From the NCBI GenBank assembly GCA_047967505.1, contig CM106538.1: 64,000 nt of DNA. One strand, 5' to 3'. Shown here piece by piece: positions 13,721 through 64,000 of this stretch. The notes beneath the pieces were generated by a model, which was not told the origin of the DNA, made no database searches, and worked only from the letters and a program-made list of their open reading frames with translations. A program made the translations under genes and the position numbers. Every line of letters begins with the position of its first letter. The first letter of the stretch is position 1. This stretch comes from Dipteris shenzhenensis. Lineage: Eukaryota.

Positions 13721-13732
13721 TGATAGCGCTTG

Positions 13733-31200: not shown

Positions 31201-31612
31201 GCGACTTGAGCTTGTGAAAGTGCATACTGATGATAATCCTGCAGATTTGCTCACTAAGAGCTTGCCTACTGAGCGGTTTGCACATTGCCGCCGCATCATG
31301 GGATTAGGATGAGACCATTCTTATTTTATGGTCCTGTATACAGTAACTGTATATTGCTGTAATTTTTATTCTTTTCTCCCCTTTAGGCACATTGGCCTTT
31401 AGGTGGGAGGTTGTTGGGGTAAAGGCACATTGCCAACCCTTCATTAAAGATAGGACACCTATGACTGTCTTAAGACAATCATAGGGTAAAACCTAATCCT
31501 AATAAAACTAATGAGTTTGTGGTGTGGCTCATCACTTCACACCCGCACATTTGGAGTTCTCTCTCTTTCTCACTCTCTCCCTCTTGCTCTTCTTCCCCCT
31601 TCAGGCCCTTCA
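25271..31612 (+). mobile_element. Ty1/copia LTR retrotransposon (inner element, sister family)
   Basis: 201-bp LTRs 25271-25471 and 31412-31612 (1 difference seen), PBS TGGTATGAGAGCC 25474-25486, PPT 31401-31410, TSD AATAG at 25266-25270 and 31613-31617. Confidence 0.97.
27208..31312 (+). pseudogene. Inner copia gag-pol with one premature stop and one frameshift
   Basis: ORFs 27181-28878, 28939-29934 and 29762-31312: CFYCGKKGHVKSKC, LDSGAS, integrase, YVDD, TKHIDVKYHF; TAG at 28876 and a 2-bp deletion near 29900 relative to the outer element. Confidence 0.95.
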
Positions 31613-34600
31613 AATAGACTTCCCCCCCTCCATTTTAAACCTCTGCAGTACTTTGCCAATGTACTCCTTCTGTGATAGAAACAAAAGTCCCTTGGACCTG
31701 TCACGAATAATCCGCATACCAAGTATATGGTTTGCATCACCCAAGTCTTTCATGTCAAAAGACTTATGCAGTTGCTTCTTCAAAGCACTAATCTCCTGTT
31801 GAGATTTGCTGGCAATCAGCATGTCATTCACATATAGAATGAGTAGCATCAAACTGCCATCCTTTGCCCGTTTGGTGTACAAGCAGTGATCGGTCTCACA
31901 CCTATGATACCCTTGGGACTGCATGAAGGCATCAAACTTCTTGTACCATTCCCTTGGTGCCTGCTTGAGTCCATACAAGCTCCTCTTGAGCTTACACACA
32001 AGCTTCTCTTTTCCTTTAACAGCATATCCCTCTGGCTGACTCATGTAGATCTCATCATGGAGATCTCCGTGAAGAAAAGCAGTCTTCACATCCATCTGAC
32101 ATAAATTCATGTCCTCATGAGCAACAAGAGCTAACACTGCTCTCAAAGTAGTCATCTTGACTACAGGGGAAAAGATCTCATCAAAGTCAATGCCCTTCTC
32201 CTGCTTAAATCCCTTGGCAACCAATCTGGCCTTATACTTCGGTAAAGCATTTGAATCCACTTTGACTTTGTAAACCCACTTGCATGGCAAAACCTTTCTG
32301 CCTGCAGGTAGCTGCACCAAGTCCCATGTATCATTTTGAAGTAGGGAGTCCATTTCTGATTGCATGGCTTTCTCCCACTTCCTTTTCTCTGTTCTTCCCA
32401 TAGCTTCCCTGAAGCTGGAAGGCTCACCACAATCTGTCAGCATGATAAAATCAGCCACATTATTGGCTCCTGGAACAAACCTGTCAGGAGGCCGTTGTAC
32501 ACGGTTGCTCCTCCTAACAAAATGCTCCGTATTAGGCTGCTGTCTAGCCTGTTCGTCATGCATGACGGGTGGCTGTACCACCATATTTGGCTGTCCTACA
32601 GTGCCATTTGCTGGCATATCCAGTGGTGCATCATTGGCAAAATTGTCTGGCTGATTTTCAGCCTGTATACCCTCTTGAACAGGGTTATTTACAGCAGCCT
32701 GCTGCTGCATATTAATGGGCATTCTTTGCTGTCCGACATCATCATAAACAACCCTCCTGTATTCCACAGGTTGCACGGGTTCTTTGTGTACACTATCCTC
32801 TTTAAAGATGACGTCATTGCTGCGTATAATCTTCCGTTTGACAGGATCCCATAACCTGTACCCCATTTCACCTTCGTCACCGTAACCCATGAAGATGCAT
32901 CTGAAAGACTTTGGCTCCAGTTTGGTGCGCAGTTCTTTGCGTACATGAGCAAAGCACTCGCAGCCAAACACACGTAAGTGCTTGTATGAAGGTGGCTTGC
33001 CAGACCACACCTCCTCTGGCACTTTCAGCTCCAAAGCCTTGTTCGGCGACCTGTTAATTAGGTGAACTGCTGTTTGCACGGCTTCTGCCCAAAAGCCATG
33101 GGGCAATGCAGCATAAGACAACATACATCGAACTTTCTCCTGAATAGTTCGATTCATCCGCTCACTCACACCATTTTGAGGTGGATTATGAGGGGCTGTG
33201 AGTTCCTGTTTAATGCCCTTAGCTTTGCATAACTGTACAAAAGCATGTGACACATACTCACCCCCATTATCAGATCTGAGGCATTTCAGCCTGCATCCTG
33301 TCCGATTCTCAACCTGAGCGACAAACTTCTTGAAAGCATCTAAGGCATCGCTCTTATGCTTCAAGAAATAGACCCACACTTTGCGTGTGGCATCATCAAT
33401 AAAAGTAATGAAATACTTTGCACCCCCTAGTGATAGCTGTGGCATCTCACACAAATCAGTGTGCACTAGATCAAGCGGTGCTCTATTCTGGGGAGTTCTC
33501 CTCTTATGAGGAGTCATAGAATGCTTTCCAAAAATGCAATGATCACAAGTAGGCAAATCTGAAAATGAAAGAGACGGCAGATAACCCAAACGTGACAGTT
33601 CTTGCATTCCTTTAACGGACATGTGTCCCAACCGGCTATGCCACAATGAAACCTTCGGCAGCTCGGTTATGGCAACAACATGATTACCTACACTGGAAAC
33701 ATAAAGAGGGTACAAGGTATCACTCTTATAACCCTCAGCCACTACAACCTGGCCATCAGTAATCACCCATTTGGAATCCCCAAATGTGGTGTGGTAACCA
33801 CTGTCATCCAATAAGCCAGTGCTAATCAGATTTTTCTTGATTTGCGGCACATGGCGGACACCATCAAGCATGACTATGCGTCCATCAGGAAATACTATCT
33901 GTATACTGCCAATCCCTGCAATCTGACATGCATAGTTGTTCCCAAGATGAACAACCCCATGAGTACCTGTATAGGAAGTAAACCACTCCCTATGAGGTGT
34001 AACATGAAAAGAAGCACCTGAATCCAAGAGCCAGGTGTGCATGTCATGGCCATCAACAACCAAGGTATGTGCAATCACAGCAGAAGAGCATAAAACATCA
34101 TGTCTATCTCCATCACTGTCCTCTGCTGCAACATTGACTGCATCCAAGTCATCTGCCTTGGCCTTGCCTTTGCCTTTGCTTCCACTGCCTGCATCCTTTG
34201 TCTCAGCCTTCTTGGCTTTCTGATCCCGTATAAACTTGAAGCACTTAGACTTCACGTGTCCCTTCTTGCCACAGTAAAAGCATTCAATATCCTTTTTGCC
34301 ACGGGACTGACTGCGGGATTTGGACTTGCCAGCAGATCTCCCCTTCTACTGAGTCCTACCTCTTTCCTGCACCTGCAAAGCATTGGAAGACTTGCTGCCC
34401 ATATTGTTCTTCCTGCTCATCTCCTCCATAAGGAGAGAGCTCTCCACATCAGCATACATAAGAGTGACATTTGAATTTGACAGGGTGGTCTTGAAAGTGT
34501 CCCAACTCTCAGGGAGGGTACACAACAAGAAAGCAGCCTTGAACTCCTCATCAAGGTTCAATCCCTGTGCGATAAGCTGTGTAAAGATGGCATTGAACTC

Positions 34601-37087
34601 ACTCAAATGTGAGGTCATAGCTGTACCTTCCTTCATGCGAAGGTCAGCGAGCTTTTTCAGCCAATAAACCTTACTGGCTGAGCTCTTTTGGGCATACAAC
34701 TCTTCTAACCTCTGCCATAGGCCATAAGAGGTCTTTTCTGCCTGAACATTGAACACAAGAGAATCAGTGAGAGTAAGCATGATAGATGCCCTTGCGGACA
34801 AATCAAGCTCCTCCCACTCATCATCTGCCATCCCAGATGGCTGGACACCCTTCAACCTTATGGACTTAGAAATCTTCTTCAACAGAAGTACATTCAAACA
34901 CTGTTCTGCCCATAATGCATAATTGTGTGCCCCTTCCAATTTCTTTATGTTCAGCATTGAGGATTCACTTCCCCCTGATGCCATATCAGACAAGGAAAGT
35001 GCCTGACTCCCTGTAAGTCAAAAATGACTAAATAAAATTCTGATTTCTCAGAAAACCTGCTCTATCAAGAGCCAGGAGCACTCACAATAGTGCTGTTTTT
35101 TACTGTAAAAAAACCTGCAGCAAAACAGAAAATTTTCCCTCCAGTCACTGTACCTTCTGACACACTGTACCGTGCTCAAATAGGCATAAAACAGTAACTA
35201 CAGAATGCTGCAGCTGTTCCACAAGTGCTTTACAAGTGCATCATCATCTGACGAAACACAAAACACTGATGTCCTGATCACTTCTCCCACCTCAGATGAG
35301 GTATTGCACTGATTAAACATGCATCAACCACCTGGCATACACTATACTGACCACTGAAAAATGCTCCAAACACCTCAGCCTGTCACAAACCTGCAACAAA
35401 GCACGGGACAAATCCCAACAAATCACCCCTATGTCAAGGGGATAAAAGGCATATGAAGTCTCTACACAGTGACCAAAGTGCTCTCAAGCACAATCTGGGC
35501 AAAAGCCCCTTGATCAATACCTGTACCAAGTGATAAACACCCTCAACAATGAGGTAGCATACAAAATTCAGCGCTCTCCTGGCACTTTCACTTGACAATG
35601 TAATGCATAAACTGCCTGTGTGCACAGTAACAACACAGATCCCAACGTACAAACATCGAAAAGAAAATCTTTTGAGCACTGTCAACGATGGACAGTTAGG
35701 GACCGAGTAAACTCGATGCGCCCTGGCCAAGCGCGGCTCAACTGAGATTTTCTAAGTGCCGTACACAAAATGTGACCTGCAAAGAAATGTCACTGATACA
35801 CTGCGGAAAACGAGACCAATGTGGGCACCCTGGCTCCACACTGCCCCAAGGCATACACTGCATTCACTGTCAGGCAAAAGCCCTATGAAATTGTCACCCG
35901 AAAACTGAGATTTGCACTCAGCAAAAGCATAAAAGCCCTCTGCAAAATCAAGGCATATGATCTCCCGTCAAAAACTGTGCAAACAACCACACACTATGGC
36001 CCCGGTCACCTCCTAGCAAGAGGGACAATGAGAGTACTTGTTGTACCTAAAAAAAAAACACAGTTTTACTCTGAGTAATCCTCGGGAAATGCATAAACAG
36101 CCTTGTTGTACTTTGTACCTGCGCGTACTTGCATGTACCACGCAAAAGAGCAGCGTGCTCTTCACTCTTTTTCTTCTTCCCCAAAAAAAAATTTCTGTGC
36201 CTGCTGTACCTGCAAGTACCTGCTGTGCCTGCACAGAGTACCTGCTGTACCCTGTACTTGCGAGGGCACGGATCCCAAAAAAAAACTGTCGAAATTCTCA
36301 AAAAAAAAATTTGCACTCGAACCTTGGCTGAGGGTACAGCCGGTATGGCTGTACCTGTACGTGCACGCGTCCCGAGGACGCTGTTGAACAGTAAGATCTG
36401 TGCGTGGCCGGTTTGTGCGCGGCTGTTCACAGCCCGCTGATGGAGGTCGGCTGCCTGTGTGCAGCTGGCTGCTGCTGGTCACACGACCCGGCAGCTAACA
36501 GCTGCACGGCCGGCTGCCTGTCGCGGCTGGTCGCGGTCGCGACCAGCTGCCTGTGCAGCCTGGCTGCAGCTTGCAGCTTGCAGCTGCAGGCTGCAGCTGG
36601 CCTGGCTGCGCGCGGCCGATGCTGCACGCTGGCTGCGCCCGCCTTGGAGCTGCTGATAGTCGCTTGCTAGCGAGCTGAAGAGCTCGCTGCTGCCCTTGAA
36701 GAACCGCGTGCTGCTGCCCGCGCTGAAGGAGAACCGCCGCACGATAGAATGCTGCCCGAAGCCTTTACACAGCTCGAGCTGAGACTCGAGAGCAGTTACA
36801 GTGCTGCCTGCTGACAGAGGGCACGAGGCCCAAGGGGAGAGGGAGGGGTAGACCGGAGTGAGAGAGGGAGGAGGTAGGCTCTGATACCACTTGTGAGGGA
36901 AAGAGGGGAGTGGAACAGTAGGAGACCGTAGACACTAGGGAGTGTGGGTGTGTAAAGAATGCGTTGAGCCACACCACAAACTCAAAAGTTTTATTAGGAT
37001 TAGGTATTCACCCTATGACTGTCTTAGGACAATCATAGCGGTCATAACATTTAAAGGGTGGCAATGTGCCTTTACCCCAACAATCAG

Positions 37088-40872: not shown

Positions 40873-41530
40873 GTAATTTTCCTGCATTATTTGTGATTAA
40901 TTGTGCTGAAATTCGCATGTTGTTTTATAGTTTAACCTGCATTGTATTTTAAGCTTGTAACTTGAGCATGTTGTTTTCAAAAGCATCCATGACTATAAAT
41001 TTAATACTTAACTTTGCTGAAGTTTAGACCTGTCTAGCAAACACCCAACATATTCATTTCTTGCAAATATGGCCTTCTGGCAGGAAAGCAGGATGTGTTA
41101 ATAATATCAATGTGATTGCTGTGATATTATATATATATCTAAATTTCTGCAGGAATTCCTTAGCAAAGAGAGTTGTGGAAGCTTACGATTATGGAATGCT
41201 ATTTTAGTCAATAGAAAAAGGATGATAGAAGTACATTGGTGCCGAATGCTCCTTTTCCAAACCGTCAAATATATGGAAGCAAAAGGCTTTGTGGAAAACA
41301 AGCTCTTTGGTTCCTTTGGTAGCTGACAACCTGATCATGGGATGTTGTACATGCTTTGCCTACCGACTTGTTGACACCCAAGTCATGTTTACGCCTCATG
41401 GGTTGCCTTAGGAAATTCTCAAGACTCAATCCCCAAATCTGTACACGATCCCACATTATCTGTAATGCCATATGTCGCACATATCTATCCTGACAGCATA
41501 ATCAGGTGAAATGTGCTTAGTTGGCTACAC

Positions 41531-43780
41531 TGTTAGAAATCAACCAACAGAGGGTACGCACAGCGGTGGACTGATAAAATAGCCCAAGAGCTTACACAGT
41601 GGTGGTGTGGGTGGAATCACAAACTTCCTTACTTCATGTGCTTCACATATATGTGCAGATCAGCAAATAAACAATGCTCAAAAGAGATATAAGACTAAAT
41701 AAATATTTCCGTCCAATGGACACAATACAACAGAGGGCCAAAGTCCTACCAAATCGTGGTCCTTTTTCCTCACCAAAAGATGCTGACTTACTATGTCCGA
41801 GACACTCCTACATCCCTGAGTCCGCGTGCTCCCTGATGAGCGTATGTAAATTTTAGTCTCCGTGTCTGATCCTCCGCACATTGCTGCCCTGAGTGTCAGC
41901 CTAGGTATGCTGCCCTTCTCCATGCTTTGTCTGCAGTACACAGCCAGCCTTGGTCCTCCTGGATGTAGGCCCTAAGTGTGCTGCTCCTCTGCTCCAAACT
42001 AGCTCCTTGAAGGCTGCCCTGGTGGATGATTAATGGGGCTGCAAATGCCCCCTTATATAGGTCTCCAGGCCCTGCCTTGCTGGCCGACTCCCTGCCCCAA
42101 AAAACCGACCCATGAGTGTCTACTGGCCAATCCAGCACTCTCCTCCATGGGTGCTCTATTTCCAGGCTCCTTTGAGCCGTGTAGCCGACCTGCTTGGCCG
42201 ACTTGTTCTCTGCCTCTCCATGGACCTGTGGGGCTCTATAAAGCTGGGCCTTTGGCCCTCCATTCCATGTAGGGGCCCAACTCCTTGGTCTGCTCCATCC
42301 CGGGCCTGGCGGGCTGGCTCCAACCAGCCCAACCAGCCCTACTTTCTGGCCGACCTTGCTGCTGTTCTCCCTGTGCTTGTTGCAGGCCATCAGCCTGCCT
42401 ACAATCCCCACCATGTAGGCACCTCTGCCTTGGGATAACTCCACCCTGTTTGCTGTGAGGTGCTGCCCATGTGGTAGCCCCCTCTCCACAGCATGCTATA
42501 AAGGCTCAAATCAATGACATCAAGTACATAGCAGAACATTGTCTTGCCTGTGTGCTTGCTCTGAAAGCAAACCATGGACCTCATTGAGGCAGATACCAAT
42601 TACCTGTGTAGTCTTGTAATGCGGCCTTCTGAATTACAGCATCCATCTGAACTTGAAACCCTAGGGCACTCCATGGAATCCACCCTCATGTTAGTATCAA
42701 CAGCTAGGCATTTGGAAAAGTCCAAGCACTCGTTGCTGTCCTTCACCTTCACAGAGGTCTCTGACTCCCCGTCCATCCACATCTCAATATCATACATTTT
42801 CACTGTGACTTCTAGGTCTGCATATCTGACCTCAGTAATACATGGAGATGTCACCAAGAACAGTTCTCCGACTACCACATTAGCCAAAGCTTTTGTCTCA
42901 TCATAGGAATCTGAGTCAGACTCCTTGTTCTTTTGATCCGCCTTCTTCTTTATGCAATCCTTTGCAAAATGGCCTGACTGATCGCAATAGAAGAATGTGT
43001 TTTCTGCTTCCTCTTCTTTTTGGAAGTGTCATGTTCGTCTCCAGAATCTCTTGGGCTTACCACCTGCTAGGCTTGCCCTGCTCCTTTGCCGGATTTGTCC
43101 TTTTCTAGCAATGCCTTGTCGTCGTTGTCTTTGTTATCGAGCTTCTCGTGAGCCTCTTCCTGTAGCAATAAGGGACCCAACTCCTCAAAGGTTAGAGGTT
43201 TGGTCCTTTTTCCTACTGTCATAGTCGTAACAAAGCTCTTGACACTCCGCGGTAGCATCTGAAGTACCATTAAGGTCAACTGGCTTGAGTATACCTAGTT
43301 GATCTCTCACCACCTTGACTTTCGTCAAGTGGTCATGAACTGAATCTCCCTCATCCATATCCATGTTTTGGATTTGATGTTGAAGTCTCAAGATCCGAGA
43401 TGTATAGATATATCTGTCTCATGCAGATCCTTTAAAATGGCCCACACCTCTACTGATGTGTCAGTTATCTAGATATGAGGACTTTGCCTCCATTCCTGTT
43501 GTCATTTTCCACAATTTTCGAGCCACTAAATGACTCCGGATCTTCACCTTCCAGATAGGATAATCGGTCCCATCCAGTTTCTCTGACTCGCCAAAGGAAT
43601 TCAACTTGAGGAGGAGGAAGGAAGAGCATCTCTCTTGAGCATCTTCTATTTGCTTATGTGAAGCACATGAAATAAGAAAGTTTGCGATTCACACCACCAC
43701 TATGTGAGCTCCTGGGCTATTCTATCAATCTTCCGCTGTGTGTACCCTTTGTTGGTTGATTTCTAACATGGTATAAGAGC
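41531..43780 (-). mobile_element. Rearranged copia-like remnant (LTR, decayed gag, inverted LTR end plus PBS)
   Basis: KLDGTDYPIWK, MDEGDSVHDHL and CDQSGHFAKDC on the minus strand; 41531-~41660 is an inverted copy of ~43645-43768, which is followed by PBS TGGTATAAGAGC on the plus strand. Confidence 0.75.
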
Positions 43781-46570
43781 TCAAGTAGGAGGGTGGGAGC
43801 TTGATGGCAGGGACCTTGCTGAAGGATGACCTTGATTCAAGGCTTTAAGGAATTGACTTCCACGACTGGAGGATTGTACCCTTGCGAGAAGGAGGGTGAC
43901 TTAGGTTGAGTTAGGTGTGTAAAGAGTTCTTGTCTGTAGATGGTGGTGTGAGTTTTCGATTTTGCTATGTGGTATAGCAACAGAGATGTCGATTTTAGAA
44001 GCAGAAGCCTCTTCAGCCACTGGGAGGTGACCTTTCTAACATACACTCCATGTAATATGTTTCCAATGCCCTGTACTCATCCTCCGTTTGTGTTTTGTGA
44101 CACTAGGCAGCACTTAAAGAATGAAACTAGCATGTTTGGCATTGGTAAATGGTCAATGATGTAATACAATTTCGCTTTTGATTGTCATCATCTTTGTGCC
44201 CCAGTTGTGTATCACCTTAGCTCTTGAGCTAGGGTCTTTAAACTAAAAAGGATGTCATGTGCACTCTATCTTGCAGTTATTGGCTCTGCACAAGTTTCAA
44301 GGCCTTTCTTTGATGAGATGCCATTTGAGCAAACAATAAACAAGACTAGTGATAGGAAGGTGATCGTTTGGAAATCAAAGTAGAAAAATTGAGAGATTGA
44401 CACCAATTAACCTTGATGCCATGGTTGATCGAAGTGCACACCTTAGCAAAGGGTGTTGTTTGAAGCATTCAAGGTATTTTGGAATGGTTATACCGTAGGA
44501 AGCATCCTTTTGGGACGTTAAAAAAATTCTCTAAAGCCTTACCTGATGCCACTAGGACCCTCCTCTCTTAGCAGCGTCACCTTACTAAAAAGGCCGAGAA
44601 CTACTTCCCCATCCCCATCCCCATCCCCATCCCCAATCCCATCCCCATCCCCATATTCACACAGATCCACATTCGCATTACAAACGCATGGTGGTCTACG
44701 TCGCTTGCGTAGGAAAGGTGGCATGCATTAATCACAGATCTAGCTTGAAGAAAAAGGTGCATGCAAGCGGCTGAGATAGAGATAAGGAAAATATTGATCT
44801 TATGCTGTCTCTCTTTCAATATCTTGAATATACTTCAAGGACAGTAAGTTGTTGCTATAGTTAGCCGGACTAAAGGGGCCATGCGTATTACAAGGCTTGA
44901 TAATGAGATCGCATACATAAATAAATATCCCCAAAGGTTGGAAGAAATTCAGGTGCACCATCTGATGGATGTCAGATGCTAGAAGACGAGTTCTGTCAAT
45001 ATCCTTGTCTTCTCTTATCTTGGCACACGCTGGTTGCATGCCATCTTGCAGGACAGGTTGGTAGAAAGACCACTAGCTAGTTCATCTACCGTCACATTTG
45101 ACAAGTGATTATAGACGTAAGCATGATATGTAACATGATCAGTTGAGGTTTTTCATTTATCATTAATGAATCATTTTCTATGGAGTCTTGATTATTCTTG
45201 GCACTTCAAGTTGCCATTTACTCTAATGTATCATGAATTGTAGGTGGGACTAGAAAAGGTTGTGTCATGAGAACATGAAATTATGGGACTTTTGATTTGC
45301 GACTCCCGTAATTTGCGCGTGACTGCCTTGAGCCTCTGGGGCGAGACTTGGGGAATTAAAATTCCCTAGTGGGCCCTTGGAAATAGTGAATGTGCGCCCA
45401 ATTACTAGGCAATTAATTCCTAGGGCCAAAGTGTGCAACAAGGGGGCCAAAAGAGTGGTACAATTACAAATTGCTAATTTTAGCACAGGACTCCAAAAAG
45501 AGCCCAGATCTCTTCTTTTGGATTGCGATTTGTTTCCATGTGTTTCCAGGCTTTCCAGGCTGCTACAGGAGATTGCAATTTGCTCCCAGGTTGTCCAGGC
45601 TCTTCAGGGAAACTTGCGATTTGATTTTTGGAGACTTCCGGGTGTTACTGCTGCTTTTGGTAACTTTCCAGGCGTGGATGTTCACTTCTAAGCTGCTCTT
45701 GGGGCTGTGCCAAAGCAAAATCAGCTTTTCTCTGCAAGATCTAGGGTTTTTCAGCCCCGGTGACCTTTCTTTTGTGGATACTAGGTAGAAGAAGGCTTGT
45801 CTTTGCCTGCTTTTGTCGTTCCCTGATTGGTTGCTAGCTGGTTATTACGTTTGGGTTTCTTTCCTCGCGAAGAAAGGTTGATTTATCATTAGTAGGGGAG
45901 AATTGGGAGGGGGAGGAGAAGAAAGTAAGGAGGGGGAGGGAAGGAGAGGGGAGGGGGAGGAGGGAGGGAGGGAGGGGGAGGAGGAGTGAGGAGGGGGAGT
46001 GAGGGAGGGAGGAGGGGGAGGGAGGGAGGGAGGAGAGAGAAGGGAGGGAATTCAAAATTCGAATTTTTGAATTTTGAAATTTTTAGTTTCCACCTAGAAG
46101 TAAGAGTTGTGTAAGAGGTGGGGTCACTCGTGGGCTTAACCCACCTAGGTGAGGGGGGGTTAGGACTTTTTGGGACCTACCTTGGCCCTTTCATTAGGAC
46201 TAATCCATTTCTTAATCCATTCCTTATGAGGCCCTTTTGACTCCTCTCCCTCTCTCCCTCCCTTCTCCATGCCTGCTCCTTCAGCCCTCCCCCTTCCTCC
46301 CTCCCCCACGCTTGCTCCTCCTGCCCTTCCCCTCCCTCCTCCACTGCTGCTTGTCCTCCCCCCTCCCTCTTGCTCCTTCCTCCTCCCTCCCTCCTCCTCC
46401 ACGCCTACTCCTCCTCACCCTCCACACCTGCTGGTCTGCCCCCCTTTCCTCCTCTTCAACTACTGGTCCTCCCTCCGCCATCTCTCCTCCTCTTCGTCCT
46501 CCCTCTTCCTACGTGTTGGTCCTTCAAGCCTGCATCTCCACACCTTCTCCTTCTCTACACTCCTTTAGTC

Positions 46571-48822
46571 ATGGCACCATTCGAGGACGTCTCTACTAAG
46601 TACCAGGTTCACTTAGAGTTAGAGGCTGAATATGCAAGCACACGTAGTCTAGGATTGAGGGGAGCTTCCAAAATCCACAGTCTTCGTTCGCAAGGAAAGA
46701 AGCATCTTGACCTTTGGGTAGAAGGATCCTTGTATCCTTTAGATCCTGCTAACCAAAAGAGCCCTCCTTTCCATATAATGCATGAGCTAGTTCGGTTTAT
46801 TGGAAATGGACATGCGGGGTTACTTGGTTATTGCAATCGGTTAAACAATGCTCAGTCAATGGCTATGCAAGCAAGCGAGATGCGCAGAGCCCAAGCAGAG
46901 ATGCTAGCATATTTAGGAAATAGCACCATTATTGCAATGCATAACTCTATGCAGGATCTTCAAAGGGAGAACCAGGATCTTCATGATAAAGCCAAAGCAT
47001 TGGACTTGGAGCGAAATGCATTGGACTTGGAGCGACATAAATTAGAAGAGTCACTCTGTAAGCTAGCTGAGTCCAAAAAAGGCTTGGAAAGATCTATATA
47101 CAATCAAGTAGGACGAGCCGTAGAGAAGGAACGAGAGAAGGCAGAAGAACGAGTGCAAAAGATGAAAGAAACACCTTTGGGATTGAAGGAGAGAAAAAGA
47201 AGGTACTTACATAACATGGATGCATTGGCACCCACTGGTGGTGCTAGAAAGAGGAGAGTCCGGGCTACAAGGTTGGTTATCAAATGTTCCAATGAGATTA
47301 CACTCTTTTGTGCTACACTGTTTGTGACTAAGTTTTTATTGTGTTCTTCTTTAGGAACTTCATGGAAGATGTGATGGGAAGAACGGACGGGGATGATATT
47401 GACTGTTCATATGCTCTAGCTAGTTTATTGAAGTCAAGCAATGTCATTGGGATACTAAGGGACCCAAGACACAAGCGCCTACGTGTGCAAGTTGCTGAGG
47501 AGGTGATGAAGGACTTCAAGGATATTGTGGATGCAAAGGAGATGCTTGCAGATTATGATACTGCCGGTGTAAGTCGTGAAGCTTACACATCTGTTTTCAA
47601 AAATTTCAAGTCTGCTATTTTGGGAAAGTATAAGAAGTCTACAGTGCCCGTTGTGATACAGGGGCAAATGCAATGAGCACATGCCTTTATTGCATGTATT
47701 CGCAACGTAAGAAAAAGGTTGGCTTATAATAGGAGAATGACATTCTATCTTGCAGCCAAACGCAAGCTCCGAATCACGACAAGAAGGATCCAAAGTGGAA
47801 TCCCATCTTGCCCATCCCACTTGAGAGAGTACACATATGTACTTTACAAGCAGAACTGCGTGTACTTGATAAGTTGTTGTATTTGCATCTTGTTTATGCT
47901 TGGAATTTAATTCCGGAAGAAGTATCCGCACGCTGCATTGTGGAAGATGAGAAGTTGTTGTCAGAGATGGGATTCCATGGAGGACATGTCAAACTTAAGG
48001 AGGATAAGAAAATGTCTGGGGCAACACAGAATCTTCCTGCAAAAGTATCCATGGGTGAAGGGAAGGCAAGGAGATTCCAATCGAACAACAATCTCGACAA
48101 AGACAAACATACATTGTCTCAAAGTAGTTTGGGTTGGGAATACTGGAAAGCATTGTGTGAATGCACGACCAATAAGGCTTCTCATCCTCAAGTAGCAACT
48201 TTGAGAGCTAAAGTATGGACAAAGGTAGATGCATTGATAAAATTGCTTCGCCAGGTTCAAATCGATGAGATGTATTATGAAAGGTTCAAGATGGTTGTGA
48301 AAGAGTTTATGCAATTAATGGTGAAAGCATGGGGGGAGTCGCACATTATGCATTACATGGTAATCTTGGCACCATTGTAATATTTAACACTTGCTTTATA
48401 AATAGTTTTTGTTGCTGATTTGATTCTCATCATGTTTGTAGCATATTCTCTATGCACACGGACCATGGTTTGTACAAAATTAGGATCCTTTGTCAATTTA
48501 GAATACACAAGGCATGCAGAAGTCGCACTATAGAGCCAAGGCAACCTACTTCAAGAACTCAAGGCATGGTGGTGGTATCGCTCGTAGCAATGCATTGCAT
48601 GAGATGTTCGACTGGTTTTTGAGATGTTTACTAGGAAGGACTTTGAAGTCTGAAAAGGCAAATGCATCAGAACTTGCAAAAGCAGTTCAAATTGTATCAA
48701 AGAATAGAAGGCATAGTGCTTGGAAAGCATCCATAGGGAGTCAAGGAGTCGCACGTTGTTTGCAAGCTAGAGTGAGAGAAGGGAGCAGATGGGTCCAACT
48801 ACCAACAGAAGCTATGATGTAA
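46571..48822 (+). pseudogene. RAG1/Transib/Chapaev-like DDE transposase, internally deleted (exons 46571-47271, 47355-48359, 48442-48822)
   Basis: Two GT-AG introns restore frame; CLYC at 47682-47693, ICTLQAELR, YMHILYAHGP and *NTQGMQKSH; AATAAA just after the stop. Confidence 0.7.
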
Positions 48823-49273
48823 TTGTATACAAATATTAAATAAATATATTGCTTATTCTACTCTTTAATATCTTGCTTATTTTGACTATAATTTTTGTAC
48901 TCACACGATGTTGGGGAAAGTGGGGACATGGTGAAGGAGGGGGGAGAGAAGGGAGGGGCGTGGGGCGGGGCAAGGGGAGGGGTGGAGTGGTAGCAAGGGT
49001 GGGGGGAGGGGGGGATGGGAGGTATGGGGGAGGGCAATGGGTGTAGGCGGGGCAAGTAGGGGGAGGGCCTCAGCCTTCCCCTCAACCTTAGCCTCAGCCT
49101 CAGCCTCAGCCTCGGCCTTCCCCTCCCCATGAGATCCCTCTCTCGATCGAACAAAATGTGTTCGATAACCTCTCGGATATAGAGAGGCTTCTTGAGGATC
49201 AATAGACTGCCAGGAAGAGCACCATCTTCGCTCTCTTGGAGATACAACCCATGGCAAAGATGACCCTGTGCCC

Positions 49274-49797
49274 ATGAGGAGGGTAAAGCAGACTCTGAGA
49301 AAGCTCCATCCCAAAGAAGGTCAAAGCTCCAGACGTCAGCGAGAGGAGGACTCAGAGGAGGACCAACGCAGACAGGAGCAGCGGAAGAAGTTCAAGGTAG
49401 ACATGAGGCCGTGGGAAGGTGTTCGGATACCTGTAAGGCCCCCGCCAAGAGTAAGGAAGCCGTACCGAGCAAAACCAAGAGCGTGGGCCGTGAGGAAGAT
49501 CAGGCAAATGCAGAAGATCACCGACAACTTGATCCCGCGTGCTTCCTTCGAACGTGTGGTACAGGAGATTGCACAAGGATACAAGGACGACGTGCGCTTC
49601 AGCACATGAGCTATGGGGGTGCTCCAGGAGGTTGCAGAGCAAGTGACAATCGCTTTGTTCGCGAGGACGCCAACTTGTGTGCCATCCATGCAAAGCGCGT
49701 CACGGTCATGGACAAGAACATGGCTCTGGCGAAGCGGCTATGGAGTGACCCAAGTTTGAGGCCCCAGATTCTCTTGCAGCCCACTCTTAGGACTTAG
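49274..49797 (+). pseudogene. Divergent histone H3-like gene
   Basis: MRRVKQTLRK start (cf. MARTKQTARK); histone fold KPYRAKP...IRQMQKITDNLIPRASFERVVQEIAQ...RF...LQE...LF/EDANLCAIHAKRVTVM; TGA at 49607-49609, 2-bp insertion at 49661-49662; AATAAA at 49858. Confidence 0.92.
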
Positions 49798-49957
49798 ACC
49801 ACCCCCTATCCTTGAAGGCACTATCTTGTATCTAAGGCCTGAGGGCCGATTTTTTTAAATAAAATATATCGACATTCTCTACACTATCGCATTGTTGTAT
49901 ATTTTTCATTTCAATGCTTGCAGTAAATGATCATTTTAAGCTAAGTTTTGAATTTTG

Positions 49958-50190
49958 TTAAATCCTGAAGGAATTTCACCGTTGCGTAGAAGGGAAAAGT
50001 GTCCGGCACGTTGCCAGGATCCCAGAAAGCCCAAAATTCGCCACGGTGCGAACTTGGATATTCTGGCTTGATTCTGGCAAGCCAGAATGTCCAAGCTCGC
50101 GCCGTGGTGGGTTTTGGGCTTTCTGGGGTCCTGGCGACGTGTCGGACACTTTTTCCTTCTGCGCGACAATGAAATTCCTTCAAGATTTGA
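49958..50190. repeat. Long fold-back inverted repeat (about 113-bp arms, 7-nt loop)
   Basis: Arms are complementary without gaps around CTTG-ATTCTGG-CAAG; all mismatches seen are transitions. Confidence 0.95.
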
Positions 50191-50419
50191 TTGAAATGAA
50201 CTCTTGATACCCAGAATTGGTGAAAATGATACTAAATTGGCTAGAAATTTATTAAACTAACACAATTAAAATGATGGAGAAAATATATCATCGACAACTT
50301 AAACAAAATACAATGGAATTCATAACGAGCAATGATAACTTAAAACAAATAATAAAGACATGTAGTCATGTATCCATTGAAATATTCATTTAAATATATG
50401 TTTATATATACAAAAGGCC

Positions 50420-51920
50420 TCATAGGCTATCTTTCCTCTTGGCTAGTTCGAGTACATCGAGAATAGGGGTCTTTGAATCCCCTAGTGGATTCCTAGATAT
50501 AAATCTAGCTGCAACAGCACTAACATCCTCCTCTCCTGCTGTCAAAGACATAGTCGTTGCCGTCAATGCCCTGCCATGAATGTTCGATCTAAAGGCATTG
50601 ATAGCAGCCAGGCGGTGTACCAAAATGACTTTGTTGGCATTTCGAGTAATGTTGGAGTATCCGATAGCACGTGACAATGCCTTGCACTTTAGCAGCTCTG
50701 AAGGACCTCGAGGAGAAATTTGCCGTGAAAGACCACGATAGGCTCTGCGACTTTGCCAAGGTAATGGGTCAAAGAATGATCTCGCTCAAATGTGCTGCGA
50801 ACATTACTCCATCGAGATGAGAAATCATCAAGCTCGAACGCATTCTGCAACAATTCAACAAACATTAGAAGATCGACAAAACAAATTATACTGAAAGAAC
50901 ATCAAAATAAAAAATATTGTTCGAACTTACCACTACAGCGTCGTCGGCTTCTATCCCTTCCTTATTTGCAATGTTGATGGAACCAGGTGTTGTGTGATGT
51001 TCCATTTGGGAGGTGGACGCTTTTCCCTGACCTATGTTGGAGGTGGAAGCTGTTGCATAAGAGAGTTGTGCATCGTATACGGACATGTCTGCATCCCTCA
51101 TTAAAACCAGCGTCGTCAAGAGAAAGTCTTCCATTGTCTGGTCTTCGGTACCTAAAATCTCGGGATCTTTGACACTTGTGTTAACATCGAACCGCGATAG
51201 GACTCCGAGTGCCTCATCCTCTCGTAGTCCAAAAAGAATCTCTATGTCATGGAGGAATACGTACTCTTCTCCATCGATGATGAGGGGGGACAAGGACCAT
51301 AATTCTGAGTCTGGGTCAACGGTCTCCGATGCAGATTCTTGCTCTACTAGGGGCTCTTGAAGTAGGCTCAATGCTTGAGCTACTTCCATCTCCTCTGTTG
51401 GATAGTCAAGACTCTCTTCCATGTAGATGTTCGAATCTAGTCTAGGGACGACCAAATCAGCAGTTCTAATAGAGGGGGTGCTAGATGATGAGGCTTCTTC
51501 CTCTAAATTTCCTTCTTGGAGAAGGAAGATGAATGTCATCTCCCATGAAAGGAATTTGGTGCCTATTTTTGCTGTGATCCCTGTGTCTAGGATGTCTTGA
51601 ACTTCGACTGTTCTAAACCCTTCGTTTGTAAGGTTGTCACAAAAGCGGGCCAAGTGCTTTACAAACTTGGGTTCCTCTATGAACAGATACTTTATGTAAT
51701 CTATGGGAACCCATCTCTTTGAAGTGTGGTCAAGTGTATAGGCAAAATTTGAGAAATTATCTTACATGTAAAGGATGAGATCTGAGAAGGCATCCTTTGC
51801 TTGCATATATGTGCCTAGGACATCTAAAGTCCTATCAAACACCAAAAATAGCTCTTCCTCACGATCTGCAAATGCAGTTCGTGAGATGAAGTCATGGAAT
51901 GCAGTTCTAGTTGAATCCAT
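50420..51920 (-). pseudogene. Two-exon gene of unknown function inside the TIR element (51920-50931, 50844-50420)
   Basis: ATG at 51920, one continuous frame with only two premature stops, GTAAGT...TGCAG intron 50930-50845 in phase 0, TATATA and AAACCCTAAA about 110 bp upstream. Confidence 0.7.
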
Positions 51921-52159
51921 GGCAAATAGTAGTTGATGGAGGGAGTAACTTCTGAGGACGGGAGTTTCTATGGCTCTCTAAATGTGAAAGTGAGAATGTG
52001 ATGTAAAAAGAGCTCTTACCCCTTAATATATATCAAAACCCTAAAAATTAAAATTAATCATAAAATCCCCAAATTTTCAGCATTGCGTGGTCTTGTAGCC
52101 TTTCTCCTCACCATGCTTGCAGAGGTTGCAACAGCAAGAATGGGACTCCTACACAAGGC

Positions 52160-52333
52160 AATGCAGCTCCAACAGAGGCACAAAAGAGGGAGAAGGAGAG
52201 GGACAGAGCAGCAGCAATAGAGGCACAGGAGAGGGAGAAGGAGAGGGACAGAGCAACAGCAACAGAGGCACAAGAGAGGGAGAAGAGGAGGGACAGAGCA
52301 GCTCCAACAGAGGCACAGGAGAGGGAGAGGGGG

Positions 52334-52382
<49 letters not shown>
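52160..52382. repeat. Subterminal tandem repeat (about 45-48 bp, 4 copies) followed by (GA)n
   Basis: Repeated CAACAGAGGCACA..AGAGGGAGAAGGAGAGGGACAGAGCA. Confidence 0.9.
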
Positions 52383-52387
<5 letters not shown>

Positions 52388-53316
52388 TTGCAGCAAGCAG
52401 GCCAGAGCAGGAGGGAGCAGAGAAAGAGGGGAAGAGGAAAAATGCGTGGGATTTGGTTCAGATCTGAGTGATTTGGCAGGCTGGACCAGAATAGTGGGGG
52501 ACAGAGGCCCTAGAAAGAGGGAGAGGAGAAGAAAAATTCGCCACAAGGGCCCTACCATCCCATTGAAGGCAGTTTTGGGCTCATGTGGGAGTGGTGCACC
52601 TGGTAGGAGGGTCAAACATGGGTTGAGAGGGGGGGGGGGGGGGATGGTTTGGGTGGTCCCTAGTGTAAGGGGAGCAACCAATAGGGGCTCTTTGTAGGCC
52701 TGCCCACCCTCCACCTCAACATACCATTGCTCCACACCTTCTAGCACTCTCATTGGTACACCTCAAATCACTCTCTAATCCCTTGAAATTAGGAAACAAT
52801 AATTGGAGGCCCTTTGGAGATCCCAATTCTTCCCTAATGGCTGTTGGGCAGTGGACAGGGTAGCTATAGATTGAGACAACCCGTTTGGAAGTGCTTTATC
52901 GATTGATTGCACCAGAGTTTAGCTATTGAGGGCTTTGTCTTGCAGTTGTTCAGCTATGTTTGGCTGGTTGGGCATGTGCGATTGCAGGTGTGGCTCAGAT
53001 AGTGGATGCTATTGGGGTCTCTGTTACATGCTTTGGTTGGCTGAGGATACATGATTCCTTGTTACTGAGTAGGAGCGTTCTAGCTGCCCTGTGATTTGTT
53101 CTGTGGTGCATATTTACTTGTCAATTTGATGCGTATGCTGTAATTAAGTGGATCCTACCACCCTTTACGTTGTTGAGGCTGGTTTCAGTGGTTCCATCGC
53201 TAGGATCCACCTAACTTCTTCAAGAGGGGAGCCTGTGGTTGGCTTGGTGCAAGTCCAGCAGACTAGGTGAAGAAGACAGCATACTATTTAGTAAATATGT
53301 CTCACAGGGAGAGATC

Positions 53317-54898
53317 TTTGAGCCTTATTGGAAAGGAAGAGGAAGAGCAGATGTCTCAGTCTTATGATGATGATCAGGGTGCAAGAGAGGAGTCCTAGCA
53401 TGTTGCTGAGCATGAGGATGATCAGACTGATGAGGAAGATGTGGAATTATTCAAGGCACAGATGCAGAGTTTCATGAGTGCTTTCACGCAGCTCACACAG
53501 GATCCTCACTTCCAAAAGATGATGAATTCAGATGTGCAGCCGAAGAAAGGAAGCCTGATGATGGGGATAGGGATGTTGAAGCTAACAAGAGACTACATGT
53601 CAGCTTTCAGGATCAGCCCTCTCAAATCCCCTTTGGTCAGCAGCAGCCTAATGCTATTCCGGGGCCTACTCAAGGTAATAATTTTCAGTCCGTCGTCTCC
53701 GGACAGCAAGGAGTTATGGCAAACCAGGTGCAACCAGGTTATTTTGGTGGTGGTTCAGTGTTTCATGCTATGGTCAGCCCCCCACAAGCCCAATTTTCGG
53801 GTATGCCTGCTAGTTAAACAGTTGGGTTTCAGCCTAGTTTACAGCCCATGGGACAGAATATGATGTATGCAAATGTTGGAGCAGCCCCAGGAATCCAAAC
53901 AGGTATGCCTAATGCAACAGCAGGTAACCTTGCTTTGGGAAATATGCAAAATATGGGTGTTGGTCTAAAGAATACAGCTTTTCCCAATGCTGGTAGTATG
54001 GGAGATGGAGTGAGTGCTGCTGTCCCTTTTGCCTAGGCACCTATATATGATAATTTGGCACCTCAAGGGAAGATGGACTTTAAAGAGGCTGGTGCGGCTC
54101 TAAAATTTGAGACATTTAGTAGGGTGAAGGATAAACTTAAGGCCTTGACCTTTTTGCAGCAGTTTGATGCAGCCTACACAAGAGGGAATTTTACAGAGTC
54201 ATCCAAAATACGCCGGGCTGCAAGTTTTCTAAAGGGGAATGCTTCAGTGGTGGACCACTATGCTTATGCAAAACACCGCACCAAACACGTGGGTAGGTTT
54301 CAAGCAAGTGTTTTCAGCTGCGTGGCTTACCACGACTTTTGAAGTGGATATCATGATTGCTTGGCATGCGCTCAATTCCAATAATTGCCGTAATTTGGAG
54401 GAGTATAACAGCAAGTTTTGGGCGGCTTTGTTGCTTGATGAATATTGTTGCGGGATGCCTAAGGAGTTGAGAGACTACTGCACAAAGGCTAAAGTTTCCA
54501 ATATGTCTCAGCTTATCGAGAATGCTAGCACGGCATATGCTTTGATGCAAGGGAGGACTTCTGGTTTCAAAGGTGGTCAGAAGCATGATACCGATCCGGT
54601 GAAGGACGAGAGGAAGAATGGATCTCGCAGGGATAAGTCTGATAGAAAAGCTAATCGTCAAAAGGATGAACATAATCGTTTGTCTCCAGAGGAACGACGC
54701 GCTTTATATGAAGATGGCAAATGCTTTATTTGCAAAGAGGAGAGACATCAGTCTAGAGATTGTCCCAACCGTAAGAGGAAGGAGCCGGCTAGTGACACCG
54801 ATAAGCCACGGAATGTTTCGAAGGGGGCAAGAGTTCCTAATTCCACAGCGGGTTGTTTACGGCTGATTTTGTATAGCGCCGTATACATGTACTTGTAA
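53317..54898 (+). pseudogene. gag: gypsy gag, frameshifted
   Basis: FLQQFDAAY...FTESSKIRRAASFL...QWW and CFICKEERHQSRDC; homologous to gag at 13733-14812. Confidence 0.88.
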
Positions 54899-57095
54899 AA
54901 AGAATTTTGTATGGCAGAGTTTGTCACTCTTTTTTTGGCATCTGATTCAAGATGATGTATGTTATACGGTTTGCAAGATGGTGTTTTCCCTGCTACTTTT
55001 GGATGCTATTTTTGCCATGAGGTTTCGATAAGATATGCATGTTATTCTTGTCATGAGGATTCGACAAGATGGGAATGCTCTTTTTTGTCATGTGGTTTTG
55101 ACAAAAGGAGAATGGATTCCCCTAGACCTTGGTTCCGGATGCGCAATTCTTGGAAGTGGTCTATGTCGTGCATCGTTGGTTGCGATGTACGTGGTGTACT
55201 AGTCACATTGGGTGTACTAGTCGCTTGGTTTGCAGTGCTATAACGTATTTGTTATCTGCAGCTCTACAAATCGTATATGCACTGTTGGTGATCTGTTGGC
55301 GGCATGATTGGCTGTCCACTCACATTTGGATTTGATATCTTAGGTACTTCGGATGTTCATGATGTACCACTAGTGTGGGTCTGAAGAGATGGCCATAGGT
55401 GGGTAAAGCATGCATGAACTATCCTTGGGAAGTACAGTCTGAGCATCTATGCGCATGCATTAAGTGTTTACATATGCTCATGATGTACCACTGGCGGTGG
55501 GTCCTTAGCGATGGCCATACGTGAGGTGGATCGGACATCGTGGGGAGCATATTGTTTGTGAATGCATGTATGCTTGTATGCATGTATGTGGAATGTTTGC
55601 TTGTCTTTTGCCTAACAAACATTGTAGTGTTTTCACTTGGTTTTCTTTTACAGGTAATTTATGGCAGTTGCGAACGCTTGCCTTCTTTCAAGAGGGGGGT
55701 CTGTCATGAGGACATGAAATTATGGGACTTTCGATTTGCGACTATCGTAATTTGCACGTGATTGCCTTGAGCCTTTGGGGTGCGAGGGTTCGGCCATGGG
55801 GTGGGACTTGGGGAATTAAAATTCCCTAATGGGCCCTTGGAAATAGTGAATGTGCGCCCAATTACTAGGCAATTAATTCCTATGGCCAAAGTGTGCAACA
55901 GGGGGGTCAAAAGAGTGGTGCAATTAAAAATTGCTAATTCTAGCACAGGATTCCCAAAAAAGCCCAGAGCCCTTCTTTTGGATTCAGAAGGCGAAATCAG
56001 TGAGCCAGACAATCAGTTGTGAGTTGCCAGAGCTTGCCAGGTGCTGCTAGAGCAAAATCGCCTTTTACCAGGAGCTTCCAGAGCCTGCCAAGGAAAATTG
56101 TCATTAGTCAGGGCTTGTACCATTGCATCTAGGGCCTGCCAGATGAAATCACACCTGATCTAGGAACCTGTTGCAGATTGCGATTTCAGCCAGGGTGTCC
56201 TGCATATTGCGATTTCAACTCCAGGTCCTCTTGGCTGTGTAGGTGACTCCGTCCTGTTCTAGAGCTGTTTCCAGGTGTTTGCAGATTGCTAGACTTCCGG
56301 GTGTTGCTGCTGATTTTGGTAACTTTCCAGGCGTGGGTGTTCACTTCTAAGCTGCTCTTGGGGCTATGCCAGAGCAGAATCAGCTTTTCTCTGCAGGATC
56401 TAGGGTTTTCCAGCCTCGGTGACCTTTCTTCTATGGATATTGGGCAGAAGAAGGCTTGTTTTTGCTTGCTTTTGCCATTCCCTGATTGGTTGTTGGCTAG
56501 TTATTGTGTTTGGGTTTCTTTCCTTGCGAAGAAAGGTTGATTTATGCTGTTGGGCAGTGGCTAGGGAGGCTATAGATTGACACAATCCGTTTGGAAGTGC
56601 TTTATTGATTGATTGCACCATAGTTTAGATGTTGAGGGCTTTGTCTTGCAATTGTTCAGCTGTGTTTGGCTGGTTGGGCACTTGGTTGTGCGATTGCAGG
56701 TGTGGCTTAGAGAGTGGATGCTATTGGGGTCTCTGTTGCATGCTTTGGTTGGCTGAGGATACAGGATTGTCTAGTGATTGGATGCCATTCATTGTTTGAA
56801 GTTGAGCAGGGAATTACAAGGTGGGCTGGACGGGGAGTCTGCAGGCATTGGTTTGCTTGTGTTGCAGCTTCCCAGAGACCTTTGTTATCAATCGCTTGGT
56901 TTCAAATGAATGCTAAATAAATACCGCAAGGGGCGCCAATGTTTGGGGCCAATCGGTATCCTTGTTACTGAGTAGGAGCGCTCTAGCTCCCCTGTGATTT
57001 GTTTTGTGGTGCATATTTACTTGTCAATTTTTTGTGTATGCTGTAATCAAGTGGATCCTACCACCCTTTACGTTGTTGAGGCTGGTTTCAGGTTG

Positions 57096-62569: not shown

Positions 62570-64000
62570 TGTAGATGCATTCGAGAATAGGCATAGAGCT
62601 TGATTTAGAGAGTTTAGGTAGCTTTTATGGGCGCTTTGGTGAATGTGGTTCAAAAGTCTGGTGTTCACCCTCACCCATCGCATGCAGAAATTGAAACGAA
62701 CTTCCTACTTACTACAACAGATCACGGGAGTAGCACCACAGAATATCCTCCCAGCCAAATCCTTGCTAGAGCGTGAGAGCTCACACAGAGAAAATCAAAA
62801 TCTGAAAACATATGTGAAGGTCCCTTCTCATTCTCTTACTAACTCCAACAAGCCCCATCTCCCTAGATGGATCTAGATGCCACATGTCATCATCATAGGG
62901 CCTTTCCTAATGCATCTTTTCACCCCTCTCTTGGGATACTTTAATTTCCTTTGCCCCTCGGCACATTGCTTACATTAGGCCCTTAGCCTTAGATCCACCT
63001 AGTCTGGTGCTATCAGCCCTCACCTAGGACCTTGACATTAATTCCTTCTTGATCATTTACATGAATCGCAAACAAATATATTACAAACGTAGATCCTTAA
63101 GGGAAATGTCGACTGATTCTTCCGAGGTCATGCCACCTCAGCTAGAGCATAACATTCCTTCCCTCTTCAGATATCAGCGTCCTCGATGATAAAGTTTGGG
63201 AACGCTCTCCGCAACTGGTATACGGATTCCCAGGTAGCTTCTGATAGAGACTGACCATGCCATGCAACCAACACTGTGGATATCTTTCGATTTCACACTT
63301 GCATTGTTCCTCGGTCCAGGATTCTTGTTGGTTTGCTTCTTGCATTATTCTCCATCTCTTGAAATAAAATCACACCTTCGATTAGTGAGTCACCTGTATG
63401 CAAAAATTTCTTTAAACGAGAAACATGAAACACTTGGTGCACCTTGTAACCCTATGGCAATTCTAATTTATAGGCTACCTTGCCTATTCTCTTTAGAATT
63501 AACCACGGCCCACAATATCGAGGTGATAACTTAGCACACTCTCCTGCAGTCAAAGACTTAGAGTGCGAAGGAACTCTGAGAAAAACTTTTTCTCCTTCCT
63601 TAAATTCTCTTATAGACCGGTTTTCATCCGCATATGCCTTGGCTTTATCCATAGCTTGGCGGATATTAGCTCTCGCAAGTGCTAGCATCTCCCGCATCCG
63701 AACCACAAAGTTCGCGGCACTAGACACTCTCTGAGGTATTCTAATTGTAGTTGGATTTGTTGGTCTATAACCATAATTCAATTCAAACGGACTAAACTTC
63801 GTAGAGGAATGTTTTCTATCATTGTAGGCAAACTCTAATAATGGCAACCACTTGTCCCACGTATGTTGCCTCAATGACACATATGCTCTAAGCATATCCT
63901 CTAAAATTTGGTTGACCCTCTCCGTCTGACCATCCGTTTTAGGATGATTCCCACTACTCATTCCCAACTTAGTCCTTAGTGTCTCAAATACCGCTGTCCA
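62570..64000 (-). mobile_element. Ty3/gypsy chromovirus 3' end (integrase, chromodomain, PPT, 3' LTR), running off the window
   Basis: HPKTDGQTERVNQILEDMLR, KLSPRYCGP, WHGQSLSEATWES; PPT GAAGAGGGAAGG at 63157-63168; LTR starts at 63154; far LTR end uncertain. Confidence 0.88.

Follow-up and report, generated by a model that had tools for sequence, protein, structure and literature searches.

A dead copy of an apparently undescribed histone H3 variant lineage, probably a passenger in a 6,953-bp insertion with terminal inverted repeats

A stretch of 64,000 nucleotides from Dipteris shenzhenensis (contig CM106538.1; referred to as the window) was analyzed around a single H3-like gene. The gene occupies positions 49274-49797 on the plus strand, is colinear and intronless, and lies within an insertion of 6,953 bp that interrupts a direct repeat. 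The gene, the insertion and their neighborhood are composed of the following features:

45263..45886 (+): left piece of an interrupted LTR-like direct repeat, which resumes at 52840-53188
45887..52839 (no strand assigned): 6,953-bp insertion carrying the H3-like gene (BLAST of the flanking repeat, X1 contigs)
45887..45908 (+): left terminal inverted repeat, CATTAGTAGGGGAGAATTGGGA (comparison of the terminal inverted repeats, core search)
46565-47374 (+), 47332-48380 (+) and 50420-51977 (-): other open reading frames of the insertion, without recognisable families
49274..49606 (+): first part of the H3-like open reading frame, with the initiator Met, H3-like first ten residues, a charged tail with the RKKFK.D.RPW motif, a proline run, alpha-N, alpha-1 and loop 1 (translation, Pfam)
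49607..49609 (+): in-frame TGA, the first disabling lesion (sequence and translation)
49610..49660 (+): start of alpha-2 in frame 1, AMGVLQEVAEQVTIALF (aligned to family members)
49661..49662 (+): 2-nt insertion (GC) that follows TTC (F) and precedes GAG (E), a frameshift and the second disabling lesion
49663..49797 (+): rest of alpha-2, alpha-3 and a C-terminal SDPSLR extension, with a TAG stop at 49795-49797
49858..49863 (+): AATAAA, a possible polyadenylation signal 61 nt past the stop (read from the sequence)
49943..50205 (no strand assigned): near-perfect, MITE-like hairpin of 262 bp, arms 82% complementary
52821..52839 (-): right terminal inverted repeat, reverse complement CATTAGGGAAGAATTGGGA (comparison of the terminal inverted repeats, core search)

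Translation of frame 1 gives 111 residues from the initiator Met to the TGA at 49607-49609 (49274-49606 encodes MRRVKQTLRKLHPKEGQSSRRQREEDSEEDQRRQEQRKKFKVDMRPWEGVRIPVRPPPRVRKPYRAKPRAW...), and the frame from 49663 reads EDANLCAIHAKRVTVMDKNMALAKRLWSDPSLRPQILLQPTLRT up to the stop at 49795-49797. Both halves of the gene match the Pfam family PF00125 Histone with 30 bits against a gathering score of 26.4 (E-values of 6.9e-7 for 49274..49606 and 7e-7 for 49663..49797), in agreement with the full-length fold proposed in the initial annotation of this locus. The two disabling lesions reported there are present as well, and the copy has no continuous open reading frame. The first part is colinear with two related proteins (P0271 and P0270, see below) with no intron-sized gap between, and the product of 49663..49797 is 64-70% identical to the C-termini of the same two proteins. 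No second H3-like copy was identified inside the 64-kb window by tblastn, and no histone 3' stem-loop was identified by Rfam.

The tail starts with MRRVKQTLRK and continues as a charged stretch, as originally described. This start represents a degenerate form of the N-terminal ARTKQTARKS of H3: 7 out of 10 residues are identical to the MARTKQTARK start of the long members of the family, and of 2000 shuffled sequences none scored as well as the window start against P0174 and three did so against P0177. By this comparison, the likeness of the window start to the H3 start is no chance match. A similarity of the adjoining upstream segment, 49196-49273, to the start of P0272 is weak, as 46 out of 2000 shuffled sequences attained it, and was discarded. 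A second ARKS was said to be missing from the tail, and it is indeed absent from the window copy and from all 19 relatives compared. Neither the K27 box nor the GGVKKP sequence around K36 is found in the window copy, and in most relatives the corresponding sequence is VK(R/K)K and the GG is missing. The proposed loss of K36 holds for the window copy, which reads VRKP where canonical H3 (P0042) has VKKP, but not for the family, because K is kept in 12 out of the 17 relatives that cover the site.

The alignment reproduces the fold features that had been listed for the window copy, namely a loop 1 of canonical length, F84, LIPRASF and the replacement of T107 by A. The C-terminal extension is also present but comprises 13 amino acids past the canonical ...RGERA rather than about 14. 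Approximately 10 of these amino acids may result from read-through after a lost stop, because the CAG at 49765-49767 aligns with the stop position of the short subfamily described below. Overall, the fold of the window copy is 51-60% identical to other H3 folds (53-54% to the short forms) and keeps 18 out of 21 near-invariant H3 columns, defined as columns that are at least 90% conserved in a 68-row H3 alignment. Since these 18 positions are kept, the window copy is, judged from its sequence, the dead copy of an H3 variant that was once constrained. The earlier proposal that the protein diverged under constraint before the copy died is supported by the near-invariant columns, by relatives with open reading frames, by a GGA codon found in related contigs at the position of the stop and by a family-type X1 contig that lacks the two extra bases of the frameshift.

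Relatives of the window copy were searched among 1.84 billion representatives with phmmer, using the read-through product with the TGA written as X as the query, and two profile searches then added further relatives. A total of 4,430 matches were obtained at E<=0.001; the top ones were all H3-like, the best identity was <=53%, and several matches share the segment that precedes the fold in the window copy. A word-indexed protein search with the 111-aa first half gave no match. The marks of the family in the window copy are RKKFK.D.RPW and a proline run followed by the fold, and SDP.LR at the C-terminus. The tail motif is common to P0018, P0022, P0025, P0071, P0023, P0037, P0170-P0181 and 16 clusters of short forms. 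Aligned in this way, the sequences define a lineage that is marked by the tail segment RKKF(K/R).D..PW and a proline run directly before alpha-N, by IP(K/R)A.F in place of IRKLPF, and by a short C-terminal extension, which reads SDP.LR in the sub-group of the window copy. This H3 variant family is apparently undescribed: in the literature searched, including passages of PMC5809374, neither a transposon-borne H3 nor a fern H3 family of the RKKF..PW kind is described, and supplementary H3 lists may include members.

The long forms (P0174, P0176, P0177, P0178, P0025, P0022, P0170, and P0071) are 324-395 aa in length and 59-85% identical to each other in the fold. The start MARTKQTAR is found in five of the eight full-length long forms, and three of the eight have the exact MARTKQTARK. 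The start is followed by an insert of 200-270 aa with conserved motifs and a Glu/Gln/Arg-rich stretch, by ERRKKF(K/R)ND.PPWE and by the proline run; the sequence then continues as VK(R/K)KY.(F)KPGT into the fold, with LCHVHAKRVTLKP and the C-terminal extension. Within the insert, P0174, P0176, P0177, P0178, P0022, P0170, and P0071 carry the motifs NIF.NLG.I, ATRTP.P and K.CAKR as well as the Glu/Gln/Arg-rich stretch, which is helical, and precomputed Pfam assignments place no domain there. A truncated member, P0023, is annotated as "hypothetical protein L7F22_031152 [Adiantum nelumboides]" and originates from a fern; the other long relatives originate from contigs of 1.4-5.1 kb.

The short subfamily consists of 16 clusters that are 82-96% identical to P0018; their contigs are 0.5-1.25 kb in length and come from a single type of source. 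Six of the clusters reach a natural stop (...RSD(P/L)ALRH), two have frameshifted tails (P0059 and P0279), P0309 lost its stop, and the rest are truncated. The C-termini of the short forms read RIRSDPALR and that of the window copy RLWSDPSLR. Intact relatives do exist, with open frames in P0270, P0271, P0174, P0176, P0177, and P0178. The AF2 model of P0270, the closest open relative, has a mean pLDDT of 86.8 and displays the helix architecture of H3. The modeled helices (48-59, 67-81, 89-116, and 124-134) comprise alpha-N, alpha-1, alpha-2, and alpha-3, with an additional N-terminal helix over the charged segment. The top 50 Foldseek matches of the model are all nucleosome or histone-octamer entries of the PDB, most with a target-normalised TM score of ~0.8.

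Among metagenome contigs, the window protein yielded no relatives in 299 pattern matches, and the eight loci obtained with P0271 lack the family tail and represent ordinary or other H3 genes. Among viral contigs (IMG/VR), all 64 H3 loci retrieved have ordinary H3 tails and none carries the family motif. Across the relatives compared, the traits that can be regarded as family-wide from these alignments are an H3 start with the K4/K9 module, a missing K27 box, the RKKF..PW and proline segment, IP.A.F, a position 107 occupied by A, S, or G except in three long forms, and a C-terminal extension.

Two phylogenetic trees were calculated without named plant CENH3s, and the phylogeny does not show the window copy as a recent pseudogene of canonical H3. 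The tree based on the tail and the fold (36 rows and 164 columns, including 15 other H3s) places the window copy as the sister group of the short subfamily (96/91), unites the long forms (97/90), and joins both together apart from the other H3s (92/94). The tree based on the fold only (39 rows and 95 columns) groups the window copy with the short forms at only 82/84, together with P0304, a CENH3-like protein with an unrelated tail. P0304 has a MARTK start, a long tail, a loop 1 that is two residues longer, and W84. The link between the window copy and the family rests mainly on the tail segment, on IPRA(A/S)F and on the shared C-terminus, because the fold-only columns leave the position of the long forms unresolved. 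In an AU test, a single group of the window copy, the short forms and the long forms was not rejected (p = 0.27).

The initial annotation listed CENH3-like changes in the fold; these are present in the window copy, and the family as a whole carries more of them than had been listed. CENH3 and CENP-A proteins are marked by the loss of Q68, the replacement of F84 (often by W) and the replacement of T107. At position 68, the window copy has E, the short forms have Q, and the long forms have A, S, or T, with Q lost in 13 out of 13 rows of the long group. The change from Q68 to E is therefore no family trait: it is found in the window copy as claimed, but related contigs carry Q, which identifies it as a private decay of this copy. 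Position 84 is F in the window copy, W in the short forms, and I or V in the long forms. At position 107, the window copy and the short forms have A and the long forms have S, G, or T; T107 is replaced in 10 out of 13 rows of the long group and in all short forms with sequence at this position, and three long forms keep T. Loop 1 (H3 positions 73-90) is not longer than that of H3 in the window copy: it has 18 residues there and in five out of six short forms, as in canonical H3, and 19 residues in 10 out of 13 rows of the long group.

These residues bear on the possibility that the family is the CENH3 of this group of plants or has recently branched off from it, and that the window carries a captured or transduplicated dead CENH3 copy without a role of its own. 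The family resembles CENH3/CENP-A in its H3 fold with a divergent, longer tail after the MARTK.. start, in IP.A.F in place of IRKLPF, in a residue other than T at position 107 in most rows, and, among the relatives, in the loss of Q68 (13/13 rows of the long group) together with a longer loop 1 (10/13) or W84 (short forms). Several of these traits are shared by a fish CENP-A (P0369) and by P0304, which the fold-only tree joins with the window copy and the short forms, and the truncated fern protein P0023 bears no annotation beyond "hypothetical". A sequence search of the PDB does not separate H3 from CENH3 ancestry; H3.3 is the best match (105-111 bits) and Schizosaccharomyces pombe Cnp1 reaches 99 bits for P0270. 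However, the window copy and the short forms have a canonical loop 1, the short forms keep Q68, and the tail carries the family motifs and the exact H3 start. The tail motifs are conserved among long forms with a fold identity of 59-85%, which is unusual for CENH3 tails. Furthermore, the short subfamily comprises multiple, partly decayed copies, with 16 clusters that include frameshifted and stop-loss members, unlike a single essential gene, and the copy described here lies inside a mobile insertion. On balance, a CENH3 origin of the family is possible but rather doubtful.

The insertion that carries the gene was delimited by comparison with an uninterrupted copy of the direct repeat at 55702-57091 (86-95% identity between the copies). 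Position 45886 joins 52840 directly in this other copy (BLAST, at 56545/56546), the junction is exact, and X1 contigs join 45886 to 52840 in the same way, which represents an empty site. Inverted repeats are found at the exact boundaries: the terminal repeats, 22 and 19 nt long, agree at 18 out of 19 positions with a 3-nt indel, and their 16-nt core occurs in the window at both ends and at one additional site with two mismatches at 39324 (0.12 expected by chance). The claim that the gene is transposon-borne is thus borne out as far as an insertion bounded by terminal inverted repeats is concerned, but no transposase was recognised inside. A search of seven open reading frames revealed no Pfam family at E<=10 and no transposase or other known transposon protein inside the insertion, and look-alikes of the reading frame at 47733-48380 in the Atlas score <0.9 and were uninformative, as were those of P0177. 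The element cannot be assigned to a class because no target-site duplication is visible at the flanks (...GATTTAT and GCTGTT...); a duplication of 2-3 bp could have been erased, because the repeat copies differ by ~10%. A Helitron was rejected based on ends that are not of the TC...CTRR type and on the presence of inverted termini, and a hAT-type element was rejected based on the absence of an 8-bp duplication. In its structure the 6.95-kb DNA behaves like a non-autonomous element with terminal inverted repeats; the insertion, if an element at all, would be non-autonomous or of another kind than those known.

A search of public sequencing runs identified three that cover small shares of the stretch. 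Four runs were aligned to 45200-53300 at a likeness of at least 80%, and the related contigs of the runs X1-X3 were compared site by site (per-site tables). Contigs of X2 and X3 cover most of the insertion, including the reading frame and its flanks (upstream 48857-49263, downstream 49736-50509), at 80-95% identity, and the reading-frame positions listed are covered by two to four distinct X2 contigs. At position 49607, all four X2 contigs and the single X3 contig carry G, which results in GGA (Gly) instead of TGA. Contigs that start to match at 49662 read ..TT+C GAG GAC (F-E-D) without the two extra bases; one of these is an X1 contig in which the preceding sequence is of the family type and not of the canonical type (both read from the table by eye). 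The 11 best-supported differences between the reading frame and the X2 contigs, out of more than 900 rows, comprise five synonymous changes, five replacements and one change of the stop to Gly; this 6:5 split of replacements (including the stop) and silent changes is no measure of selection because the sample is too small and too strongly selected. For four of the five replacements, the residue in the contigs is the H3 or family consensus (T82, Q93 which is H3 Q68, R97 which is H3 R72, and A120). The contigs carry the consensus residues, and the changes in the window copy, Q68E among them, are therefore private and degenerative.

The depth of X2 contigs is uneven across the insertion (~60-140 at 46555-48722 versus ~15-47 elsewhere), and such depths cannot rank the parts. 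The region 46555-48722 holds a coiled-coil reading frame (46565-47374) and the reading frames at 47332-48380, and its summed X2 contig depth is several-fold above the rest; this region may derive from a repeat that is more abundant than the portion with the histone gene. A second repeat within the insertion is the hairpin at 49943-50205, which follows the H3-like stop at a distance of ~150 nt. In a DNA fold the hairpin reaches -113.7 kcal/mol (z = -20.7), and its two strands match the MIR7724 precursor family with 61 and 50 bits, below the gathering score of 100 (Rfam). The hairpin is probably a separate small MITE-like insertion, because positions 50052-50297 are missing from an X2 contig. 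Given the uneven X2 depth and the hairpin element nested inside, the 6.95 kb may be a composite.

Taken together, the locus is probably a dead, intronless gene copy of a distinct H3 variant lineage that resides as a passenger in the 6,953-bp insertion with its inverted termini. Members of the lineage that are still live would be nucleosomal H3 variants that pair with H4, in line with the P0270 model that folds as H3, and their tail would offer a K4/K9 module without a K27 box. The window copy would have been intact or nearly so when the element inserted, would have decayed neutrally since, and would have no function now.

A putative role for the element itself was weighed against this passenger reading. 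A transposon might keep an H3 gene for its own benefit, with the variant loaded on element DNA or acting as a sink for K4/K9 enzymes and, for lack of the K27 box, blunting H3K27 silencing. The initial annotation pointed in this direction, with putative nucleosomes that might resist K27/K36 marking or a possible K4/K9 decoy. The kept H3 start (MARTKQTAR in 5/8 full-length long forms, 7/10 identities in the window copy) and the lack of a second ARKS in every member would suit such a role, and so would the relationship of the window copy to the short forms, which are sisters with ~54% identity in the fold that both keep the fold and include multiple, partly decayed copies; this fits a long co-travel with mobile DNA. 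However, the K36 equivalent is retained in most relatives, and a host gene that repeatedly spawns pseudogenes could give the same pattern; a benefit to the transposon is unlikely. Similarly improbable, though it would account for the window copy as a dead member, is the more specific scenario of a DNA transposon lineage of ferns or neighboring plants that has long carried its own H3 variant, derived from a long-tailed CENH3-like host H3 and kept by selection, in which a K4/K9 start without K27 marks or a separate chaperone route would let the element set its own chromatin state. That the gene is not mobile cargo at all but a host relic or processed retrocopy in a patchwork of nested repeats, with the 6.95 kb not being one element, is very unlikely, since its intronless structure, the uneven X2 depth and the nested hairpin are set against the exact empty-site junction, inverted termini that match precisely at both ends, contigs of other runs that cover the gene plus its flanks, and, on inspection of the sequence, the absence of a poly(A) tract after the AATAAA at 49858..49863.

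The lineage of which the window copy is probably a dead passenger can be compared with several known systems. H3.3 and H3.1 are its best sequence and fold matches in the PDB (105-111 bits for H3.3; TM ~0.8 for nucleosomal H3) and share the first ten residues, but the fold identity is 51-60%, residues 11-35 are replaced by the charged segment, RKKF..PW and the proline run, and the window copy lacks the K27 box and carries a C-terminal extension. Arabidopsis H3.15 is an H3 variant without K27 that is nucleosomal, encoded by a host gene, and near-canonical in its tail and fold. Both are H3s unable to carry K27 methylation, whereas in the window copy the mid-tail is wholly replaced and the gene lies in mobile DNA. 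Pack-MULE, CACTA, and Helitron elements transduplicate host sequences, and what they capture is usually a recent fragment that still resembles its parent gene closely. The insertion resembles such elements in that a host-type, non-transposase gene lies in an element bounded by terminal inverted repeats without a recognisable transposase, but the window gene extends in full from start to stop and falls into a deep clade with a separate evolution. Histone variants normally serve the host, and most of the selfish elements known to carry histone genes are large DNA viruses. The likeness to virus-encoded histones (review PMC9145170) lies in a histone gene on a selfish genetic element, whereas 0/64 H3 loci retrieved from IMG/VR carry the family motif and nothing in the insertion points to a virus.

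An H3 variant that travels and multiplies with transposon-like plant DNA would, if true, represent a new way for mobile DNA to meet chromatin-based silencing. The plainer reading as a passenger still defines a long-tailed H3 family of 324-395 aa that could be an unrecognised fern centromeric H3 or a new variant class, and it also tells which of the special residues in the window copy are decay only.

The remaining window is rich in retrotransposons, with Ty1/copia and Ty3/gypsy genes confirmed by Pfam. The direct repeats (45263-45886 plus 52840-53188, and 55702-57091) are ~10.4 kb apart and flank a 2.5-kb interior with a gag-like reading frame (54233-54898) that gives a weak zf-CCHC match (E = 0.003). 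The repeats and the interior look like a small non-autonomous LTR retrotransposon, the left LTR of which received the 6.95-kb insertion. One Ty1/copia family is present as two copies arranged head to head at 27130-31312 (+) and 31610-35017 (-), which carry gag, integrase, and RVT_2 domains, and as a further fragment at 24527-25063 (-). Genes of the Ty3/gypsy type, with capsid, protease region, RT/RNase H, and integrase domains, are located at 11501-14854 (-) and 63452-64000 (-). Finally, a pair of inverted repeats of ~120 nt (41526-41649 and 43655-43773, 86-87% complementary, ~2 kb apart) encloses a reading frame at 41896-42495 (-) that matches no Pfam family; the unit at 41526-43773 may be another element with terminal inverted repeats.
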